Shown one piece after another: positions 1-9,116 of a stretch of 9,116 nt of DNA. The stretch's first letter is position 1, and each line of letters starts with the position of its first letter. The notes beneath the pieces are model-generated. The model was not told the DNA's origin and made no database searches. It was given only the letters and a program-made list of their open reading frames with translations. Position numbers and translations under genes: made by a program. The stretch is from a virus (lineage: Duplodnaviria; Heunggongvirae; Uroviricota; Caudoviricetes), in IMG/VR virus record IMGVR_UViG_2579779052_000010. One strand, given 5' to 3'.

Positions 1-483
1 ATGACGAAGAAAAAAGCACATAAACCTGGTTCAGCGACCATCGCGCTTAACAAGCGCGCCCGTCACGAATACTTTATCGAAGAAGAGTTCGAAGCGGGAC
101 TTGCCCTGCAAGGCTGGGAAGTTAAATCCCTGCGCGCAGGAAAAGCCAATATCAGCGACAGCTACGTCCTTCTGCGTGACGGAGAGGCATTTCTGTTTGG
201 CGCTAACATCACGCCAATGGCCGTGGCCTCCACGCATGTGGTGTGCGATCCTACCCGTACCCGCAAGTTACTTCTCAACCAGCGCGAACTGGACTCATTG
301 TACGGTCGCGTCAATCGAGAAGGCTATACCGTAGTGGCGCTCTCCCTGTACTGGAAAAATGCCTGGTGCAAAGTGAAAATCGGCGTCGCCAAAGGTAAGA
401 AACAGCACGATAAACGTTCAGATATCAAAGAGCGCGAATGGCAGGTGGATAAAGCGCGTATCATGAAAAATGCCCACCGTTAA
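1..483 (+). CDS. smpB: SsrA-binding protein SmpB (complete, 160 aa)
   Basis: Translation [30 protein letters not shown]... matches enterobacterial SmpB as I recall it; stop TAA at 481-483; tmRNA gene lies immediately downstream, the conserved smpB-ssrA arrangement. Confidence 0.96.
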
Positions 484-653
484 ACCTGCACTCCAATTAT
501 TGACCAGTTCCTCACCGCGCCTCCCTCTCCGGCGGCGCGAATGAACATCTTATTGGTTATCACATCCGACACAAATGTTGCCATTCCATTGCTTAATCGA
601 ATAAAAATCAGGCTACATGGGTGCTAAATCTTTAACGATAACGCCATTGAGGC

Positions 654-683
654 TGGTCATGGCGCTCATAAATCTGGTATACT
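654..683 (+). promoter_or_regulatory. Putative sigma70 promoter of ssrA (-35 TGGTCA 654-659, 18-bp spacer, -10 TATACT 678-683)
   Basis: Hexamers read directly. The -10 sits about 15 nt upstream of the mature tmRNA 5' end at 698, consistent with a short 5' leader that is processed off. The -35 is weak. Confidence 0.35.
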
Positions 684-697
684 TACCTTTACACATT

Positions 698-1060
698 GGG
701 GCTGATTCTGGATTCGACGGGATTTGCGAAACCCAAGGTGCATGCCGAGGGGCGGTTGGCCTCGTAAAAAGCCGCAAAAAATAGTCGCAAACGACGAAAA
801 CTACGCTTTAGCAGCTTAATAACCTGCTTAGAGCCCTCTCTCCCTAGCCTCCGCTCTTAGGACGGGGATCAAGAGAGGTCAAACCCAAAAGAGATCGCGT
901 GGAAGCCCTGCCTGGGGTTGAAGCGTTAAAACTTAATCAGGCTAGTTTGTTAGTGGCGTGTCCGTCCGCAGCTGGCAAGCGAATGTAAAGACTGACTAAG
1001 CATGTAGTACCGAGGATGTAGGAATTTCGGACGCGGGTTCAACTCCCGCCAGCTCCACCA
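698..1060 (+). ncRNA. ssrA: tmRNA (transfer-messenger RNA, SsrA), 363 nt
   Basis: Starts GGGGCTGATTCTGGATTCGACGGG and ends GGTTCAACTCCCGCCAGCTCCACCA (tRNA-Ala-like acceptor/T-arm with encoded CCA). Internal tag frame present. Sequence agrees with E. coli tmRNA from memory. Confidence 0.96.
787..819 (+). other. tmRNA tag reading frame GCA AAC GAC GAA AAC TAC GCT TTA GCA GCT TAA (ANDENYALAA-stop)
   Basis: Direct translation from resume codon GCA at 787 to TAA at 817-819; canonical enterobacterial degradation tag. Confidence 0.9.
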
Positions 1061-1071
1061 AATAAAACAAA

Positions 1072-1100
1072 GGGTTACGTGAAAACGTAGCCCTTTTTTT
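1072..1100 (+). terminator. Rho-independent terminator downstream of ssrA (8-bp stem GGGTTACG/CGTAGCCC, 6-nt loop, T7 run)
   Basis: Stem 1072-1079 pairs with 1086-1093 (one G-U wobble), followed by TTTTTTT at 1094-1100. The minus-strand reading is also followed by a U-rich tract, so it may act bidirectionally. Confidence 0.6.
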
Positions 1101-1106
1101 ATGCCC

Positions 1107-1147
1107 CGTGGCGGCAAAATGGCGACAGACGATTGGGCGTGGCGACA
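1107..1147. repeat. Three copies of a 10-bp motif CGTGGCG(G/A)CA (1107-1116, 1118-1127 as aaTGGCGACA, 1138-1147)
   Basis: Read directly: CGTGGCGGCA, AATGGCGACA and CGTGGCGACA, lying between the tmRNA 3' end and the ogr terminator. Position suits integrase arm-type binding sites of the prophage att region; function not demonstrated. Confidence 0.35.
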
Positions 1148-1154
1148 TGGGCAA

Positions 1155-1176
1155 TAAAAAACCCGCCAGTGGCGGG
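1155..1176 (-). terminator. Rho-independent terminator of ogr (minus-strand stem CCCGCC/GGCGGG, 3-nt loop, U6 tract)
   Basis: On the minus strand CCCGCCACUGGCGGG (1176-1162) is followed by UUUUUU (1161-1156), directly abutting the ogr stop codon at 1179-1177. Confidence 0.55.
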
Positions 1177-1392
1177 TTAGTATGCAAACTGCTCCTGCAG
1201 GCCTTTTGGATGCGGTGGAGCTGCACTGATTTTCTCCGGGCGGCAAACCGATCTCACAAACGTTTCATGGGTTACAAACGTATGCCCGCATTCAATATTT
1301 GTACATTGGTTGTAACGCTCTTTGGTTTCGCTGGAGACCTGAAAGCTGCTGCGTGTATGTGCTGCCATTCCACACAACGGACAATTCATCAT
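1177..1392 (-). CDS. ogr: Ogr/Delta-family zinc-finger late transcription activator (about 71 aa)
   Basis: Translation MMNCPLCGMAAHTRSS...TKERYNQCTNIECGHTF has the CxxC...CxxxxC pattern and resembles P2 Ogr (MFHCPLCQHAAHARTS...). The supplied ORF starts at a TTG (1398); I prefer ATG at 1392-1390, preceded by AAGGAG with about 8-nt spacing. Last gene before the att end, as in P2. Confidence 0.85.
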   Translation of the reverse strand: MMNCPLCGMAAHTRSSFQVSSETKERYNQCTNIECGHTFVTHETFVRSVCRPEKISAAPPHPKGLQEQFAY

Positions 1393-1463
1393 GAGCAACT
1401 CTCCTTAATCATTTTTGCTGAAATCGCAATAATGATACACCATAATTCAATTTTGAGAACCAA

Positions 1464-2561
1464 TTATTCCATTTCGAGATCGTCTATTTTCACCTCAAAA
1501 TCCAGGCTGGTCGTAAATCCATTATCTGCAGTAACGGTATGGGTCAGCGTGGTAATGGTCCATTCAGCATCATCAATCTGCTTTTTGAACCCCTGCACCT
1601 TTACCGGCATTTCCGTATAGAGATCAGCGCGCCCTTCTGCCAGCTGCATAGAGAATGAGGCCACACCACGCTGCAGGCGCTCCCATTGCATTTTTGCTGC
1701 CCGTTCTGCATTGCTTCGGTTCGCATAAGTCCGACTGAGGACCAGCACGTTTTCATCCGTACCGACCAGGTAATCCCCCTGTTTCTCCTCCGGCGTTTTT
1801 GTCGTTGTGGTTTTACGCTTCCGCTTTACCTTTACCGCTTCTTTTTTTACCGGTTCCCGCGTATGTAGCCAGCTGGCAATAACGCCGGTATAGGCGCCAC
1901 GGTCTGCCAGAGTGAAGCGGTGGCCATCGCCATCTTTACGGGTAATCGTGATAACCGGCAGCGCTTTGCCACTGGCAGTTTTGCCCTGGCCCTGCCGGAG
2001 AAACAGCAGATTGCCATCCTTCACAGATGCAATGGCGCCATACTGGCGCGCCAGCCGCATCAGGAAACTGGCGTCGCTCTCGTTTGTCTGGTCGATGTGA
2101 TCGATCGCTTTGTCGGTCAGGTCTTTGCCCAGCGCCATTTTCAGGTTATGGCGCCCGGCTATTTCTTTCACCACCTCCCCCACGGTTGTCTGGTGCCATG
2201 ACTTTTCACGCCGGGTATTCAGCGTTTCCCGGAAGTCTGCGCTGCGGGCGCGAATGGTCAGACGGTCAGGCGCGCCACTGTGTTCAATTTCATCTACCGT
2301 ATAACCGCCCTTTGGGAACAGCGGCTGACCTTTCCAGCCCAGCGCCACGGTGATCACCGCTCCACGGCGCGGCAGCACAATCAGACCGTCCGCGTCGTCC
2401 AGCTCCAGATCAAGCTGGTCAGCCTCAAAGCCCCGGTTATCGGTCAGGGTCAGGCTCATCAGGCGCTTATCCAGCACCGTTGTAATATCCTTACCCTCAA
2501 TCGTGATGCTGAATGCTGGCGTTTTGCTGCCGGTATTCAGCAGCCCTGAATCAAAACTCAT
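1464..2561 (-). CDS. D: Phage late control gene D protein (P2 gpD-like tail protein), 365 aa
   Basis: Size, position (last tail gene before ogr) and sequence character match P2 gpD. Start ATG overlaps the U stop as ATGA at 2561-2558 (translational coupling). Confidence 0.88.
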   Translation of the reverse strand: MSFDSGLLNTGSKTPAFSITIEGKDITTVLDKRLMSLTLTDNRGFEADQLDLELDDADGLIVLPRRGAVITVALGWKGQPLFPKGGYTVDEIEHSGAPDRLTIRARSADFRETLNTRREKSWHQTTVGEVVKEIAGRHNLKMALGKDLTDKAIDHIDQTNESDASFLMRLARQYGAIASVKDGNLLFLRQGQGKTASGKALPVITITRKDGDGHRFTLADRGAYTGVIASWLHTREPVKKEAVKVKRKRKTTTTKTPEEKQGDYLVGTDENVLVLSRTYANRSNAERAAKMQWERLQRGVASFSMQLAEGRADLYTEMPVKVQGFKKQIDDAEWTITTLTHTVTADNGFTTSLDFEVKIDDLEME

Positions 2562-3043
2562 GACAGTAACCCTCCCACCGTTCCGCTGACGCTGCCAATT
2601 ACAGACGTTGCCGTGTCCTGCAGAATGCCCAGCTGATCGCTAAGGCTGCCGAACATATCTGCCAGCGACTCATCAACCCTTTTCAGTGACAATGAAAATT
2701 CAATCCGGCGCGGCATCCCGTCACGGAAAAATTCTGCTTTCGTCTGGTTCAGCCCCTCGATCACATACATGCCATAAATCGTGCCACTTCCCTCGATCAG
2801 GGGCCACGCCTTGCCCAGCTCCGCCATCTGTTCCAGCGCCAACATAGACAGCCTGCCGCCGGTGATTTCCGGTAACAGCACCCCGGATAGCGTCAGCGTG
2901 TCATTATCCGGCCCCAGAAATTGCGTGGTGGCGCGACGGTTTACGCGGCTGTTTGTCGCATGGCGCCAGCTTCGCTGATACTGCAGCTCCTGATAAGGGA
3001 CCGTGCGCAGCTCGAAAACAAATAATCCCAGCACCATCATCAT
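2558..3043 (-). CDS. U: Phage tail protein U (P2 gpU-like), 161 aa
   Basis: MMMVLGLFVFELRTVPYQ... N-terminus and size typical of P2 gpU. Start overlaps the T stop as ATGA at 3043-3040. Confidence 0.86.
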   Translation of the reverse strand: MMMVLGLFVFELRTVPYQELQYQRSWRHATNSRVNRRATTQFLGPDNDTLTLSGVLLPEITGGRLSMLALEQMAELGKAWPLIEGSGTIYGMYVIEGLNQTKAEFFRDGMPRRIEFSLSLKRVDESLADMFGSLSDQLGILQDTATSVIGSVSGTVGGLLS

Positions 3044-5835
3044 TCGTCATAGCCCCCCTGATCGCTGTAGTTACTCCGGGCCTTCGCCCTGATCCGACGG
3101 TCACGCTCATCGAGCTGGCGCGCCACCTCTCGCGCAATGTCCTGCGCATTCTGCCCTGGCTGCGCCTGGATAATAATCTGCGTGGGCGCGTCCACATGGA
3201 AAACTGGCTGCGCGCTTGCGCCCTGCCCCATCATCACGGCGCCCGATTTCACCGGCAGGCTAAACGGATGAAGCGGGGCCGCATCGACCGGCGCCGCAGC
3301 CACCCCCATCATCCCGGCAACCACCGAGGCCAGCGCCGCTGTGCGTCGCCTGCTGGTTACGTTTACCGGGCCGTTGACAATCTCCGGCCCATTCTCCCCC
3401 ACGATGCCAAACTGCCCGCGCGGGATATTGCCGCCGGTGTCGTACATTCCCGCGTAAGCCGGGAATCCGCCGGGCGGCAACATCACGCTGCCGTTACCGC
3501 CCAATGTGGCAGGCGTCTGATTTGGCAGCCTGGCGCTGGCGGCCTCTTTGTTAACCAGACCAAGTTTATCCAGCAACCAGACCACACCGGATTTCAGAGA
3601 CTCCAGCGGATGCAGTGCCATATTCAGCCCTTCCGCCAGCATTTCCCCGAACAAACGCCCCATTGATGCCGCGCTCTGCAGCTCTGCCGCCGTCGATTTA
3701 ACTGGCGTCAGCAAGTCGGTAAACCAGCCCCACAACTCCCTGACCTTATCCCCTACCCACTGAAAAATGGGCATTAGCGGGGTGAAGGCTGACAGGATCG
3801 GCGCAGCTGCCGCTTTGAACCCTTCCACCACGCCCCCCAGAAAGGCGCTGATAGGTTGCCAGTATTTCCAGACCACCATCGCCACCCCAGCCAGCGCAGC
3901 CACCACCAGACCGATCGGACTCAACAGCGCGCCCAACAGACCGCCCACAGAAAACAGCGCCACACGCAGCACTGCCAGCGGCCCGGAAACCAGCAAACGC
4001 AGCACCCCACCCGTGCGGGTCGCTGCAGCTGCAGCAGAAGGTAAAGCCTTAACCGCCAGCATCGACAGCGCGAACCGGATCACCGCAATCGGCCCCAGCA
4101 CTGCAGCCACAGCCACCGCCAGCGTACCCAGCCCGACAGTGATCGCCGCCGTCGCCGCAGCCACTTTCATCAGCGTGCCAGCCAGCACGGGATTCTGCTC
4201 AACCCAGCGCCGCAGCGCCCCGGTCACGCCTTTAACCATGCTCATGATATCCATCAGCGGCTGGCGCAGCGTTTCCCCCAGGCTGCTGAAAGCGTTCTGC
4301 GCGCCCGTCTTAACCAGCAACCACTGCGCAGACAATGAATCTTTATTAATGTCGGATTCTTTCTGCATTGAGCCGTTCGCATCAGCTCCGGCGGTGAGTT
4401 TCAACTGGCGCTGCAGCTCCGGCAGGTTGTTAGCCAGTTTCGCGGCATCATCGCCAAACTCTTTACCAAAAATCATCGTCATTGCAGACAGGCGCTTATC
4501 CTGCGGCAGCTTGTTGACCTTCTCCAGTACGCGCTGAATAGTGCCCATGGCATCCGTGGTCATCTGCTTTTCGATCTCTGCCGGATTGAGTTTCAGCAGG
4601 TCCATACCTTCAAAAAAGCGTTTGCTTTGCATGGTGGCAATGGAAAGCTCACGCACCATGGCATTTGAAGCACTGGCGGCAATTTCAGGCGCGGCGCCCA
4701 GAGAAAGGAAAGTTGAACCCAGCGCCGCCGCTTTGCGGAAGTCGAGGCGGTCAGCCACGCCCCCCATGCGCTGCAGGACGTTGATAATATCCCCGCCCTT
4801 TGACATGGCGTTATCGTCCAGGTAGTTCAGCGCATCGCCCAGCTGCTCAATGTTGCGCGTAGGCACTTTATACAGCTGCGCTATTTTTCCTAACCCCTCC
4901 GCCAGTTCATCTGCAGGCAGCTCAAAGGCCGTTGCTGCTTTAGCCGCGGTGGAGGCAAAGGCCAGCAGATCGCGCTTCTGGTCCTCAAAAGGATCATCCT
5001 GATTGATCACGCCCATGCGGGCGCCCCCCTCAACCAATGCCGCGTAGTCAATCGCGCCGTTCTCCATCGGCAGCTGCTCACTGGCTGCTTTGATGGCATC
5101 CTGCATTTCATAAAACTGCTTTGTGCGGTTGCCGTTGTCGTCACGCAGCCCATTAACCTGTTTTGCCACGCCTTTCATGGCATCTTCCATGCTGGCATAA
5201 CTCCTGACCGCAGCCACAACCGGCGCCCCCATTGCTGCGCCAGCGGCTGCCGTTGTCGCCCCGGCGCCAGCGATGCGATCACGAACTTCAAGACGGCGGG
5301 AATACTGCTCACGGACCGCATTCATCCGCGCCTGCTGTTCCCCCAGGCGTTTGAGTGATTTTTGCTGGCGGTCCAGCGCCTGCCGCGTTTCGTCAGCATT
5401 CTGCCGCAGCTCGCGCTGGGCGCTGCTAAGCTTGCGGGTATCCAGCCCTGCTTCATTCAGGGCCAGCCGCTGTTTTTGTACGGACTGACGCAAGCCGTTG
5501 TACTGCCCCTGCAGCTCATTAACACGGTTTTTTGCCTGTTCAAGCAGCCTGGCCTGCTGCGCCGTAGGGCGGTTGGTTGCTGAAAACTGCGTTGCAAGTT
5601 TTGCGGCCTCTTCGCGCGCAGCTTTCAGGTTTTGACCGGTGACGGCAAGCTGTCCGTTCGCCTTACGAAAGCCATCAATACGGGCGGCCTGAGAATCAAG
5701 CGCTTTAAGGCTGGCACGACTTTGCTGGATTGCGGCTGCCAGCTCCTTAGAGCTGGCCTGCGCAGAACGGAAGGGGCGGGTGAGTTTATCCACCGCGTTC
5801 AGAATGACCTGCAGGCGCAGGTTGTTATCGCTCAT
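3040..5835 (-). CDS. T: Tail tape measure protein (P2 gpT-like), 931 aa
   Basis: Long protein with a Q/R/A/L-rich, probably coiled-coil N-terminal part, an Ala/Gly-rich central stretch and hydrophobic Ala/Val/Leu segments later on; located between E/E' and U as in P2. Confidence 0.9.
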   Translation of the reverse strand: MSDNNLRLQVILNAVDKLTRPFRSAQASSKELAAAIQQSRASLKALDSQAARIDGFRKANGQLAVTGQNLKAAREEAAKLATQFSATNRPTAQQARLLEQAKNRVNELQGQYNGLRQSVQKQRLALNEAGLDTRKLSSAQRELRQNADETRQALDRQQKSLKRLGEQQARMNAVREQYSRRLEVRDRIAGAGATTAAAGAAMGAPVVAAVRSYASMEDAMKGVAKQVNGLRDDNGNRTKQFYEMQDAIKAASEQLPMENGAIDYAALVEGGARMGVINQDDPFEDQKRDLLAFASTAAKAATAFELPADELAEGLGKIAQLYKVPTRNIEQLGDALNYLDDNAMSKGGDIINVLQRMGGVADRLDFRKAAALGSTFLSLGAAPEIAASASNAMVRELSIATMQSKRFFEGMDLLKLNPAEIEKQMTTDAMGTIQRVLEKVNKLPQDKRLSAMTMIFGKEFGDDAAKLANNLPELQRQLKLTAGADANGSMQKESDINKDSLSAQWLLVKTGAQNAFSSLGETLRQPLMDIMSMVKGVTGALRRWVEQNPVLAGTLMKVAAATAAITVGLGTLAVAVAAVLGPIAVIRFALSMLAVKALPSAAAAATRTGGVLRLLVSGPLAVLRVALFSVGGLLGALLSPIGLVVAALAGVAMVVWKYWQPISAFLGGVVEGFKAAAAPILSAFTPLMPIFQWVGDKVRELWGWFTDLLTPVKSTAAELQSAASMGRLFGEMLAEGLNMALHPLESLKSGVVWLLDKLGLVNKEAASARLPNQTPATLGGNGSVMLPPGGFPAYAGMYDTGGNIPRGQFGIVGENGPEIVNGPVNVTSRRRTAALASVVAGMMGVAAAPVDAAPLHPFSLPVKSGAVMMGQGASAQPVFHVDAPTQIIIQAQPGQNAQDIAREVARQLDERDRRIRAKARSNYSDQGGYDE

Positions 5836-6276
5836 CGCTGGCTCCGCTTCTCTGTATCGCTTTGTACCGCCATTCCAGCACTTCGGTCAGCGGCATAACG
5901 TCAGTGACGGAGGGCGGCCAGTGAAAAATGGTGGCAATATCTGCCACCAAATCATCTACCGTCAGGCAGTCGGTAAACCGGCAAGCACCGACTTCTTCAA
6001 CAAAAAAGTGACCACCTCAACAGACAACGAGGTGAGATCGGCGGGGTCCAGCTCTGCCATTTCCTGCGGCGTCAGCGTCGGGGTGGAAATGCGGGGGATC
6101 ACCGTCATCATGGCGCCCACATCCATATCCATAAGGGCCTGCAGGCGCGTGCCACGCAGTGCGCCGGATTGCGGCTTACGCAGTACAATTTCAGTGATTT
6201 CAGTTTTACCACGCTTGATTGGGGTATCCAGCTGCACAGTCTTTTCAGTCAGTTTATCGCTCATTATCTTTTCCAT
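5825..6276 (-). CDS. gpE+E' frameshift fusion (about 150 aa: E residues 1-92, then 58 aa from the -1 frame)
   Basis: Hand translation of the -1 frame from 6001 gives VEEVGACRFTDCLTVDDLVADIATIFHWPPSVTDVMPLTEVLEWRYKAIQRSGASDER-stop, ending 11 nt inside the T start. This fills the otherwise non-coding 126-bp E-T gap. Confidence 0.65.
5962..6276 (-). CDS. E: Tail assembly chaperone gpE (zero-frame product), 104 aa from first ATG
   Basis: Small ORF between FII and T as in P2. A second in-frame ATG at 6264-6262 (MSDKL...) may be the true start. Stop TGA at 5964-5962. Confidence 0.82.
   Translation of the reverse strand: MEKIMSDKLTEKTVQLDTPIKRGKTEITEIVLRKPQSGALRGTRLQALMDMDVGAMMTVIPRISTPTLTPQEMAELDPADLTSLSVEVVTFLLKKSVLAGLPTA
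6001..6007 (-). other. -1 programmed frameshift slippery heptamer T TTT TTG (minus strand) in the 3' end of E
   Basis: Minus-strand codons ACT TTT TTG (Thr-Phe-Leu, residues 90-92 of E) form an X XXY YYZ heptamer. The -1 frame stays open for 58 codons to TAA at 5827-5825. A TTTTTTG site is the reported P2 E/E' recoding signal. Confidence 0.7.
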
Positions 6277-6313
6277 TAGGGTTATTGCGCGGCCTGCCGC
6301 GCCATCAGGTTAA

Positions 6314-6829
6314 TCAGAGGCCAATTGCGTTGCGGTGTTCTTCCAGCAGGTCCACACCATCACAAATTTCGACCATATTGATAACATCGACCTCATAGAG
6401 CACCTCACCGGCGATCGTCAGCTTCGCATAGGTATTGGTGCTGCTGACCTTCGTGGAATTGCTCTCGCCCGTTTTCAGTTCGCCAGCATCCACCTCTTTA
6501 TGGCGCCCACGTACAACCAGCTCAACCGCCTGCACTTCGCCGGTATCGTCACGCTGAATTGAGCCAGTGAAACGCAGCTGGATGCCGTCGACAGTGGCTT
6601 TCCCCATCTGCTTGTATAGCAGTGACTCCATACCGCCAATTGAGAATTCGGTATCCAGCGCGCCATCATCCAGCCCCAAATCCACATCTGCAGATCCCGG
6701 CATCCCGCCGCCGCGATATTTTTCAAACTTGCGTGAATACTTTGGCAAGGTGATTGACTCAACAATCCCCATCCAGTTGTTCCCGTCGTTAAACAGGTTC
6801 AGGTGCTTTAACTTGCGTGGTAATGCCAT
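6314..6829 (-). CDS. FII: Major tail tube protein (P2 gpFII-like), 171 aa
   Basis: MALPRKLKHLNLFNDGNNWMG... resembles P2 FII; strong RBS AAGGGGGA upstream of ATG at 6829-6827; directly downstream of the sheath gene. Confidence 0.92.
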   Translation of the reverse strand: MALPRKLKHLNLFNDGNNWMGIVESITLPKYSRKFEKYRGGGMPGSADVDLGLDDGALDTEFSIGGMESLLYKQMGKATVDGIQLRFTGSIQRDDTGEVQAVELVVRGRHKEVDAGELKTGESNSTKVSSTNTYAKLTIAGEVLYEVDVINMVEICDGVDLLEEHRNAIGL

Positions 6830-6838
6830 GTATCCCCC

Positions 6839-8011
6839 TTATGCGCTGACGCGGCTGGCAAAATCGACCAGATAGCGATCGGTGATGCGCTGGCGCAGCA
6901 TCAGATTTTCAAGCGGCGGCACTGGCGTATAGTCGTAGTCGATCGCCAGTTTCCCGGCTTTCAGGGTGTCCTTATCGTTCACCGACTCATCCAGCCAGCA
7001 ATCACCACCAATCAGATAGCCCTGGTTAACCAGGCTGCGCATTTTGGCGCGGATACCTTCGATAATGTCGCGGGCCAGTGATGGATTCAGCGGCATATCA
7101 ACTGCCCACATATGCGCTTCCGCCATGGTGTCAGCCAGCACCTGCGCCGTGCGGGTGTAGTTTTCAAACTGGAACAACGGATCATCACTGAGGCAACGGG
7201 AACCCCAGAAGCGGAAACCGTCTTTACGAATGAGGGTGGTGATATCGTTCTGGTTAAGCAGTCCCGCATCCGTTGCCGGGTCCTGCAGATCCCAGGACAC
7301 ATCAGCGGACAGGCCAGTGACGCCATTCACGCCCACGTTAGACAGGGTTTTGTGCCAGCCGGTCTGCTCGTCAATTTTGGCGCGCATACCCAGCGCGCGG
7401 GCGGTGGCAAAAGCCGTCGCATCCGCCTGCAGCACGGTGTCAAAGTTGATAAAGTCAGGCCAAATCAACATCCCTTCACGCTGGCTGAAATTCTCACGAT
7501 AGGCGATCGCTTCCTCCATCGTTTTGCAGCCATAGGCGGAAAGGTAAGCGAACCCGCGCAGGCTCTGCGCCACGCTAAGCAGTTCAGTGGAAACCGCCTG
7601 CGTATCATGGCCCGGCACACCGAGGATGCGCGGCTTAACGCCCAGCTGCGACTGCGCAGACAGCAGCGCTTTGATGCCCGTTTTTTTACCGTCTGCCGTG
7701 ACGCCGCCGATAATATTGGCGGTGGTTTCAGCTTCGGTTTCACCCTGGGCCACGCGGATAACCACGGTGACAGGCTTTGCCTGATCTGCAATAGCATCCA
7801 GCGAGCGGGCCAGCGTGCCGGACTCGCCTGCTTTGCCGCTGGCGGTCAGCACATCGGTCAGAAGGACCGGCTTATTGAGGGGGAACACGGACGCATCGGC
7901 ATCATCGCCGGTGCAGACCATGCCCACGATGGCTGCGCTCACCGTGGTAATCGTTCGGGTGCCTTCGTTGATTTCTTCAACGCGCACGCCGTGGTGGTAA
8001 TCCTGAGCCAT
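6839..8011 (-). CDS. FI: Contractile tail sheath protein (P2 gpFI-like), 390 aa
   Basis: [19 protein letters not shown]...LIWPDF...[16 protein letters not shown]...[13 protein letters not shown] closely resembles P2 FI as recalled; RBS GGAGA about 9 nt before ATG at 8011-8009. Confidence 0.93.
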
Positions 8012-8033
8012 AAGGCATTATCTCCGGTTGACA

Positions 8034-8101
8034 GGGATGCCTTATGTTCTGGTTGATACGCACGCGGCGCACGTGTTTCTGCCTGTGCCATCACTGACAC
8101 A
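8034..8101 (-). promoter_or_regulatory. Candidate Ogr-dependent late promoter for the FI-FII-E-T-U-D operon, with TGT-N12-ACA dyad at 8084-8101
   Basis: TGTGCCATCACTGACACA contains the TGT-N12-ACA element that P2/P4 late promoters carry near -55. It lies 73-90 nt upstream of the FI ATG with -10-like CATAAG (8046-8041) about 45-50 nt downstream of the dyad centre. The motif is short and could occur by chance. Confidence 0.4.
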
Positions 8102-8113
8102 ATAACGGGGTTT

Positions 8114-8671
8114 TCAGCCTGGCTGGCTGGCGGGAAATTTCTTATACAGCGTGGAAATACCCACATCAAAAAGCAGCGCCACGCGCTGACGTGTTTCACC
8201 TGCAGCCAGTAACCGCCCGGCCTGCGCCCATTGTTCCTGTGACAACTTTGGACGGCGCCCGCCGATTCTCCCCTGCGCCCTTGCTGCTGCCAATCCCGCA
8301 CGGGTTCTTTCCACAATCAGTTCACGCTCCATTTCAGCCAGGGCGCCCATAATGTGGAAGAAAAAGCGCCCCATGGGTGTCGAGGTATCAATGCTGTCCG
8401 TCAGACTGCGGAAATTAACAGCCCGCTGCCGCAGTTCCTCCACGAGAATCACCAGATGCCGCATACTGCGCCCAAGTCGATCAAGCTTCCAGACAACCAG
8501 CGTATCTCCTGGCGACAGGGTTTTAAGCAGCTTTTTTAATCCGGGGCGGTCCGATGTTTTACCGCTCATTTTATCCTCAAATATCAGCTCACATCCTGAC
8601 CGTTCCAGCGCATCACGCTGCAGTGCAGTATTTTGTTCATTTGTTGATACACGTATATAGCCTACTAACAT
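8114..8671 (-). CDS. Serine recombinase, DNA invertase family (Hin/Gin/Cin/Pin-like), 185 aa
   Basis: N-terminus MLVGYIRVSTNEQNTALQRDAL with catalytic-serine context (RVST), typical small-resolvase/invertase length and a C-terminal HTH-like segment (GETRQRVALLFDVGISTLYK). RBS GGGAGG 4 nt before ATG at 8671-8669. Confidence 0.92.
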   Translation of the reverse strand: MLVGYIRVSTNEQNTALQRDALERSGCELIFEDKMSGKTSDRPGLKKLLKTLSPGDTLVVWKLDRLGRSMRHLVILVEELRQRAVNFRSLTDSIDTSTPMGRFFFHIMGALAEMERELIVERTRAGLAAARAQGRIGGRRPKLSQEQWAQAGRLLAAGETRQRVALLFDVGISTLYKKFPASQPG

Positions 8672-8723
8672 GCTGCCTCCCTGATAAAAGGCAGCATTGT
8701 GCTACTCAACGATAGATTTTTGA

Positions 8724-9116
8724 TCAAAGGCTAAAAATTTCGTTAATCCAAGCGGAGGTTTCAGGAGAGCGTACAAATGGGCCATGAACACTCGCGTAAC
8801 ACCCCTTTGATGCCACATCCCGCTCAAGGTTAATACCGATCCAATCAACCGAGCAGATTACTCTTTCATCATCTTCGACAACACCTTTTACGATTCCTAT
8901 ATGCTTAATCGCAATCATAGGGTTGCCACGGCCTTTCATCCTTTTTATGGCGATTCGATCTCCAGGCCTGATTTCTTTTGCCGCTTCGAATTGAACTTTG
9001 TCTTCATCAATTCCCCATCCCAAAACCCAGATGTGGTTTTTAACGAACTTCTCATCCTGGTGGTCAACACCATTCCAAGACGCGCCAACTAACCAATAAC
9101 GCTGCTGATTATCCAT
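8724..9116 (-). CDS. Hypothetical protein, 130 aa, AT-rich cargo gene; loosely beta-barrel (PUA/EVE-like) pattern, unverified
   Basis: Intact ORF with ATG exactly at the window edge and stop TGA at 8726-8724. Visibly AT-richer than the tail genes. No similarity to P2 structural or tail-fibre assembly proteins that I can recognise. YWLVGASW...GDRIAIK...IGIVKG is only loosely reminiscent of PUA-like folds. Confidence 0.6.
   Translation of the reverse strand: MDNQQRYWLVGASWNGVDHQDEKFVKNHIWVLGWGIDEDKVQFEAAKEIRPGDRIAIKRMKGRGNPMIAIKHIGIVKGVVEDDERVICSVDWIGINLERDVASKGCYASVHGPFVRSPETSAWINEIFSL

Follow-up and report, generated by a model that had tools for sequence, protein, structure and literature searches.

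The window, by which we mean the whole 9,116-nucleotide stretch that was analysed, extends from smpB and ssrA into the right arm of a P2/Fels-2-like Escherichia coli prophage integrated at ssrA. Its features are as follows, the prophage genes within it all lying on the minus strand.

1-483, plus strand: smpB
698-1060: ssrA, the tmRNA gene (tag ANDENYALAA), abutting the prophage end
1177-1398, minus strand: ogr
1464-2561, minus strand: D
2558-3043, minus strand: U
3040-5835, minus strand: tape measure gene T
5962-6276, minus strand: E
6314-6829, minus strand: tail tube gene FII
6839-8011, minus strand: tail sheath gene FI, with which the downstream late operon begins (Pfam Phage_sheath_1, Phage_sheath_1C and Gp18_domIII_N)
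8114-8671, minus strand: serine DNA invertase gene of the Cin/Gin type, 185 aa (ATG-to-stop open reading frame, Pfam and PHROG matches)
8582-8653, minus strand: predicted Fis-dependent recombinational enhancer, nucleotides 19-90 of the invertase gene, placed by homology
8587-8601, minus strand: 15-mer GGTCAGGATGTGAGC (gene nucleotides 71-85), agreeing with the presumed Fis consensus GNNYRNNWNNYRNNC at 7/7 specified positions
8670-8697, minus strand: 12-bp RNA hairpin AUGCUGCCUUUU/GGGAGGCAGCAU, in which the Shine-Dalgarno sequence of the invertase and the AU of its start codon AUG are base-paired
8715-8726, plus strand: hix-like half-site GATTTTTGATCA, a chance match outside the system
8724-9116, minus strand: cargo gene for a standalone PUA-like (EVE/YTH-type) protein of 130 aa, its ATG being the last triplet of the window

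The smpB-ssrA portion is 99.6% identical to E. coli chromosomes, and the prophage portion aligns with Fels-2 at about 81% DNA identity, window 1040-8662 corresponding to Fels-2 positions 1-7644. As the homology with the attP end of Fels-2 begins at window position 1040, the point of integration is the 3' end of ssrA. A search of 5,426 complete E. coli genomes and of a phage collection did not find the locus; the matches were pinE, at about 77% identity, and phages of the Fels-2 type, at about 80%, and the cargo gene is in none of the records. The prophage is found in draft assemblies of E. coli, Citrobacter and Kluyvera, and the exact invertase protein occurs in 141 blocks of public assemblies. 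The exact proteins are recorded under E. coli 1-250-04_S3_C1 and 'MULTISPECIES Enterobacteriaceae'. In Kluyvera (L007 and L008), a 96%-identical prophage sits at another locus, beside ybjL, ybjM and grxA.

The sequence-only reading had placed a serine DNA invertase at 8114-8671, on the strand of the tail operon and directly 5' of FI, and both statements are borne out. The open reading frame is real and full length, and its product matches Pfam Resolvase (PF00239, E 1.4e-51, residues 3-135) and HTH_7 (PF02796, E 2.9e-13, residues 138-181) as well as PHROG 125, 'DNA invertase' (E 5.8e-93). It lies 102 nt 5' of FI on the same strand, and FI is followed by the remainder of a P2-type tail operon, namely FII, E, T, U, D and ogr. 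Aligned with other invertases, the protein shares 78% of its residues with P1 Cin and 72% with Mu Gin, and the figure is 83-84% for the enzymes of Fels-2 (83%), MET_P1_103_31 and an Atlantibacter prophage. With Gin at 72% and Cin at 78%, and with the solved Mu Gin structures 3uj3 (E 1.5e-86) and 4m6f (E 3.9e-85) matched far ahead of gamma-delta resolvase (E 9e-30), it stands nearer to the invertases than to the resolvases. The predicted product is a Cin-like small serine recombinase of the Din type (Hin/Gin/Cin/Pin). Ser9, Arg7, Asp64-Arg65, Arg68, His106 and Met114 all fall in invariant columns of an alignment that includes Cin, Gin and Fels-2; the protein is full length, every conserved residue is intact and nothing in the alignment points to inactivation, so that the substitutions at the catalytic serine which the earlier reading had named as a sign of an inactive enzyme are not found.

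The 102-nt gap between the invertase gene and FI holds, at window 8084-8101 and some 81 nt before the FI ATG, the dyad TGTGCCATCACTGACACA, of the form TGT-N12-ACA, a pattern that we take to be the Ogr/Delta activator site of P2 late promoters. This pattern occurs three times in the window against 1.4 expected, and it is the position of this copy that suggests the Ogr/Delta reading. In a prophage of Atlantibacter hermannii (L014, 7078-7509), an additional gene of 143 aa, without a Pfam match and on the opposite strand, lies between the invertase gene and FI; it is a further cargo in the same hotspot.

The window itself holds no crossover site. When 26-mers were scored against the Din-family consensus TTCTCNNAAACCNNGGTTTNNGAGAA with a threshold of at least 15/20 positions, none in the window reached it, in keeping with the earlier statement that 8672-8760 has no convincing 26-bp site. 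The one half-site-like element pointed out there, GATTTTTGATCA at 8715-8726, is indeed present and agrees with GGTTTTTGATAA at 10/12 positions, but its significance does not hold up: the window contains two such matches against 0.55 expected, and 21/200 shuffled sequences do equally well. We rejected it as a component since it is at chance level, overlaps the cargo stop codon and is hix-like, whereas the real sites are cix-like. These lie beyond the window. Two public contigs, L004 and L009, carry the whole 9,116-base window at 100% identity, and L004 continues past its end (with every locus turned so that the invertase reads on the plus strand, window position = 14550 - L004 position). L004 has exactly two 26-mers scoring at least 15/20, in inverted orientation and with complementary cores:

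L004 5323-5348 (would-be window 9202-9227): proximal site ATCTCGTAAACC-AA-GGTTTAAGAGAA, 19/20
L004 3399-3424 (would-be window 11126-11151): distal site TTCTCGAATACC-TT-GGTTTAAGCGAA, 18/20

The proximal site lies upstream of the cargo gene, with 85 nt between it and the ATG. As it starts 86 nt past the final base of the window, it could not be seen from the window alone; its outer half, GGTTTAAGAGAA, is the same as that of P1 cixL. The distal site is about 1.9 kb further on, inside the tail-fibre gene H, after codon 215. The search for a pair of inverted 26-bp sites upstream of 9116, which the earlier reading had put forward as a check, thus succeeds, with a cix-like pair. Exact scans for the proximal junction in the viral_contigs and metagenome_contigs collections gave 0 matches.

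The decisive evidence comes from another E. coli assembly, L006, which is 99.99% identical to the window. Its flanks are identical to those of L004 at 3269/3269 positions on the left and 11099/11100 on the right, while the 1,924 bp between the site centres agree at only 612/1924 positions when compared directly and at 1924/1924 once reverse-complemented. The sites of L006 read ...GGTTTACGAGAT on the left and TTCGCTTAAACC... on the right, the inner half-sites being exchanged relative to L004; this swap is exact, as cleavage and crossover at the central TT/AA dinucleotide predict. Both orientations therefore exist among otherwise identical contigs. Among the 24 longest cargo-bearing contigs, about 12 have the arrangement of L004 and about 5 that of L006, both counts being approximate because they rest on an automated grouping of similar places; one (L061) carries a different cassette with its own site pair and another (L062) has the proximal site only. 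Five of the 24 (L063, L064 and similar ones, including a contig of GCA_000627435.1, the probable source assembly) end inside the site, 105 nt upstream of the cargo ATG, and the truncated contigs (L063, L064) begin at TAAACCAAGG, the first base common to both orientations; across this junction the two versions read ATCTCG|TAAACCAAGG and TTCGCT|TAAACCAAGG. Such breaks are expected of a de Bruijn assembler when the reads mix both states and, together with the differences between samples, they suggest that inversion occurs within a single culture.

The invertible segment carries the tip of the tail fibre. The first 215 residues are common to both H products, of 438 aa and 424 aa, which diverge just past LEYLGL, a stretch encoded by the site itself. 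The small gene after H changes along with it, being a 126-aa Caudo_TAP chaperone with the 438-aa H and a 71-aa open reading frame with the 424-aa H. The kinship with invertases, the catalytic domain with Ser9 followed by the HTH, the paired sites, the two orientations and the fibre-tip segment together place the system in the Din type. We accordingly assign a probability of roughly 90% to the reading that an active Cin/Gin-family invertase flips a 1,924-bp tail-fibre segment outside the window and that the cargo gene is a later insertion. The suggestion of a tail-fibre inversion switch whose segment lies further upstream is thereby upheld by the L004 site pair and by the opposite orientations of L004 and L006.

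In Gin, Hin and Cin, dimers bind both sites and an enhancer bound by Fis in cis assembles the invertasome. Phosphoserine links to Ser9 form as all four strands are broken at the 2-bp core, one pair of dimers turns by 180 degrees, and the ends are sealed again. By analogy, dimers of the present invertase would bind the two inverted 26-bp cix-like sites outside the window, its presumed substrates, and would form a synapse with an enhancer, occupied by Fis, near the start of the invertase gene. The strands would be cleaved at the central dinucleotide and rejoined after a rotation by 180 degrees, which would flip the 1,924 bp, exchanging the C-terminal half of H and the downstream small gene and probably altering receptor specificity, and with it the host range.

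An enhancer is predicted within the invertase gene by homology with P1, whose record annotates an 'enhancer of Cin-mediated C-segment inversion' at cin nucleotides 19-90. Window 8582-8653 aligns to it without gaps at 56/72 identical positions, compared with 70% over the whole gene; the conservation of this stretch is not independent evidence, as the same region codes for the catalytic N-terminus with the active-site motif. At the position of the 15-mer GGTCAGGATGTGAGC, cin, gin and the invertase genes of Fels-2 and MET_P1_103_31 also have a 7/7 match to the presumed Fis consensus, which makes five genes in total. GGTCAGGATGTGAGC is the one clear 15-mer in the window invertase gene; a second Fis site was sought there at a distance of 48 bp, and no clear consensus match appeared. 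His106 and Met114, which we take to be positions where mutations in Gin confer independence from Fis, are wild type here and would fit a regulated enzyme, and dependence on Fis and the enhancer is predicted by analogy. The predicted enhancer is about 550-645 nt from the proximal site, comparable to about 460-560 nt in P1, so that the gene inserted between them should not disturb invertasome assembly.

The leader of the invertase gene has a further feature in the 12-bp hairpin at 8670-8697 (MFE -21.7 kcal/mol, z -2.33; 5/200 shuffled sequences fold as well). Four genera, Kluyvera, Atlantibacter and Erwinia among them, retain the stem sequence at their cargo-bearing loci, with no compensatory changes between them, and the hairpin may act as a translational damper that holds invertase translation low. 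Scans for sigma-70 promoters around the junction in both orientations gave none on the sense strand of cargo and invertase; the two sigma-70-like sites that a wider scan of L004 gave are on the other strand or towards the end of the invertase gene. Cargo and invertase are presumably co-transcribed.

The gene directly upstream of the invertase was described in the sequence-only reading as not tail-fibre-like, and this description stands, its product having no match in Pfam (E up to 0.001), PHROGs, PADLOC or NCBIfam. The protein is assigned a PUA-like beta-barrel fold; it does not fall within the Pfam EVE, YTH or ASCH models, and nothing above noise came from a profile search against the PDB. 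Its invariant residues include the aromatic and basic W30, W34, W92, W123, H72, H111, R54, K58, R59 and R99, which might belong to a binding pocket. In Fels-2, SEN8, MET_P1_103_31 and Mu, which lack the cargo, the site-to-invertase spacing is 54-55 nt. In the present prophage the gap is 530 nt, made up of an 85-nt AT-rich spacer (32% GC), the 393-nt gene and 52 nt; the gene has 44.8% GC against 55% for the prophage, and leader homology with the relatives returns only about 30 nt before the invertase ATG. The low GC, the widened gap and the point at which homology resumes indicate a moron-like insertion by which about 475 bp entered the leader of the invertase gene, and the cargo looks like a later acquisition of this kind and not like recombination machinery. 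A 141-aa variant of the cargo is present in two copies in one E. coli assembly.

Homologues of the cargo are found in Verrucomicrobia, Cyanobacteria, Planctomycetes, Neisseria, Pseudomonas and others. An invertase stands beside the cargo only in close enterobacterial relatives, in Erwinia rhapontici and Atlantibacter hermannii (78% identity), both with site pairs of their own and both retaining the order of site pair, cargo and invertase. None of 36 distant homologues has an invertase in flanks of up to 7 kb on each side, and no neighbouring gene recurs across the family, local synteny being confined to Neisseria and Ottowia. On these grounds a recombinase travelling with the cargo, one of the alternatives offered by the earlier reading, is ruled out as a general rule; relatives with an invertase in the same slot and no cargo likewise speak against an enzyme decoupled from the fibres. 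On a metagenome contig (L018/L019, 5711-7756), a distant homologue stands between transposase fragments, which precede it, and the gene for a 681-aa AAA_15/AAA_21 ATPase, which comes after it, a setting that looks like a defence island.

Two other explanations of the locus have to be set against the fibre switch. One holds that invertase and cargo form a functional or mobile module, in which the recombinase moves or regulates the cargo or inversion switches its expression. The two genes are adjacent, co-oriented and 52 nt apart, their pairing is retained in prophages of E. coli, Citrobacter, Kluyvera, Atlantibacter and Erwinia and, with no promoter of their own detected, read-through across the site could drive both. 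However, closely related invertases, at 83-84% identity, do their work in this slot with no cargo beside them, and only 1/39 cargo-family loci in species-representative genomes, that of Erwinia, has an invertase; two further homologue contexts, in a cyanobacterium and on a metagenome contig, have none, nor has the family as a whole any conserved neighbour. The inverted segment, moreover, does not include the cargo, whose orientation is the same in either state, and the scan revealed no outward-facing promoter-like site in either orientation. We consider such a module very improbable.

The other explanation, that the invertase is an orphan or has decayed and no longer inverts anything, would account for a window without a crossover site, and it finds some footing in a lineage represented by L003 (5100-9500, the same as the L062 contig). 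Here an identical invertase and cargo adjoin a tail-fibre region that has been replaced by one with a 452-aa H, open reading frames of 62 aa and 369 aa and a 170-aa TAP; the proximal site (L003 9445-9470) is a perfect 20/20, and the partner site on the left was not found even at a lowered threshold. To judge from its sequence, this lineage may have a locked switch and an orphaned invertase. For the prophage of the window, the full-length gene with all its conserved residues, the paired sites in a contig identical to the window, the occurrence of both orientations in otherwise identical contigs and the five contigs that break exactly at the site leave orphanhood or decay as the least probable of the explanations that we considered.

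The active fibre switch has close parallels among known systems. The invertases of Fels-2 (STM2702), SEN8 and MET_P1_103_31 occupy the same slot between the fibre genes and FI in P2-like prophages at ssrA, are 83-84% identical to that of the window and have paired 26-bp sites with one partner inside H. The layout of Fels-2 and SEN8 is that of the present prophage, running H, tfa (G), inverted tfa' (G'), H' fragment, site, invertase, FI. They differ in having 54-55 nt from site to invertase where the 130-aa cargo gene here makes up much of 530 nt, and Fels-2 has the core TC/GA in place of TT/AA. P1 resembles the present system in its Cin protein (78%), in the outer half-site GGTTTAAGAGAA of cixL, in the stretch homologous to its annotated enhancer (56/72) and in a C segment that bears alternative fibre C-termini with their chaperones. 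In contrast, cin points towards its segment and cixL overlaps its 3' end, whereas the window gene faces away from its segment, like that of Mu; the P1 segment is also about 4.2 kb long against 1.9 kb here, and the host element here is a P2-like prophage. Mu shares with our locus the order S(H)-constant, site, segment, site and an invertase reading away from the segment, together with a Gin that is 72% identical and whose structures (3uj3, 4m6f) are matched at E 1e-85 or better; it differs in its gix half-sites, TTATCCAAAACC / GGTTTACAGGAA, and in having no gene inserted between gixR and gin. The peculiarities of the present switch are thus the gene between site and invertase, the TT/AA core and the short 1.9-kb segment.

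The position of the cargo is that of the P2 Z/fun hotspot, from the tail-fibre gene G to FI, which often carries a DNA invertase and defence-like cargo (2024 preprint); the gene found here encodes neither Z/fun nor a defence protein listed in PADLOC. It also departs from the PUA-like readers of the EVE, YTH and ASCH groups (PH1033, the VcaM4I N-domain, THYN1 and McrB-N), among which it has no membership at the sequence level, in standing alone, with neither a fused nuclease nor a conserved partner gene. As a tentative and rather doubtful proposal, the cargo might found an undescribed family of standalone EVE/YTH-like readers, spread over many phyla and with no partner gene, which in the Z/fun hotspot would perhaps serve as a single-gene anti-phage or epigenetic sensor, for example by binding the hypermodified DNA of incoming phages, and perhaps be co-expressed with the invertase from one leader.

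These observations settle the annotation of the prophage as the bearer of a working two-state tail-fibre (host-range) switch, and this switch explains the assembly breaks at the locus. The distribution of the prophage over E. coli, Citrobacter and Kluyvera fits an element able to change its receptor specificity. An insert of about 0.5 kb that separates the crossover site from the invertase gene and its predicted enhancer is evidently tolerated, inversion not being abolished by it. The switch itself is of an ordinary and well-known kind, and the cargo protein alone is mildly novel; as a well-folded, unannotated PUA-like family in a hotspot known for defence genes, it is the sole new lead that the locus provides.
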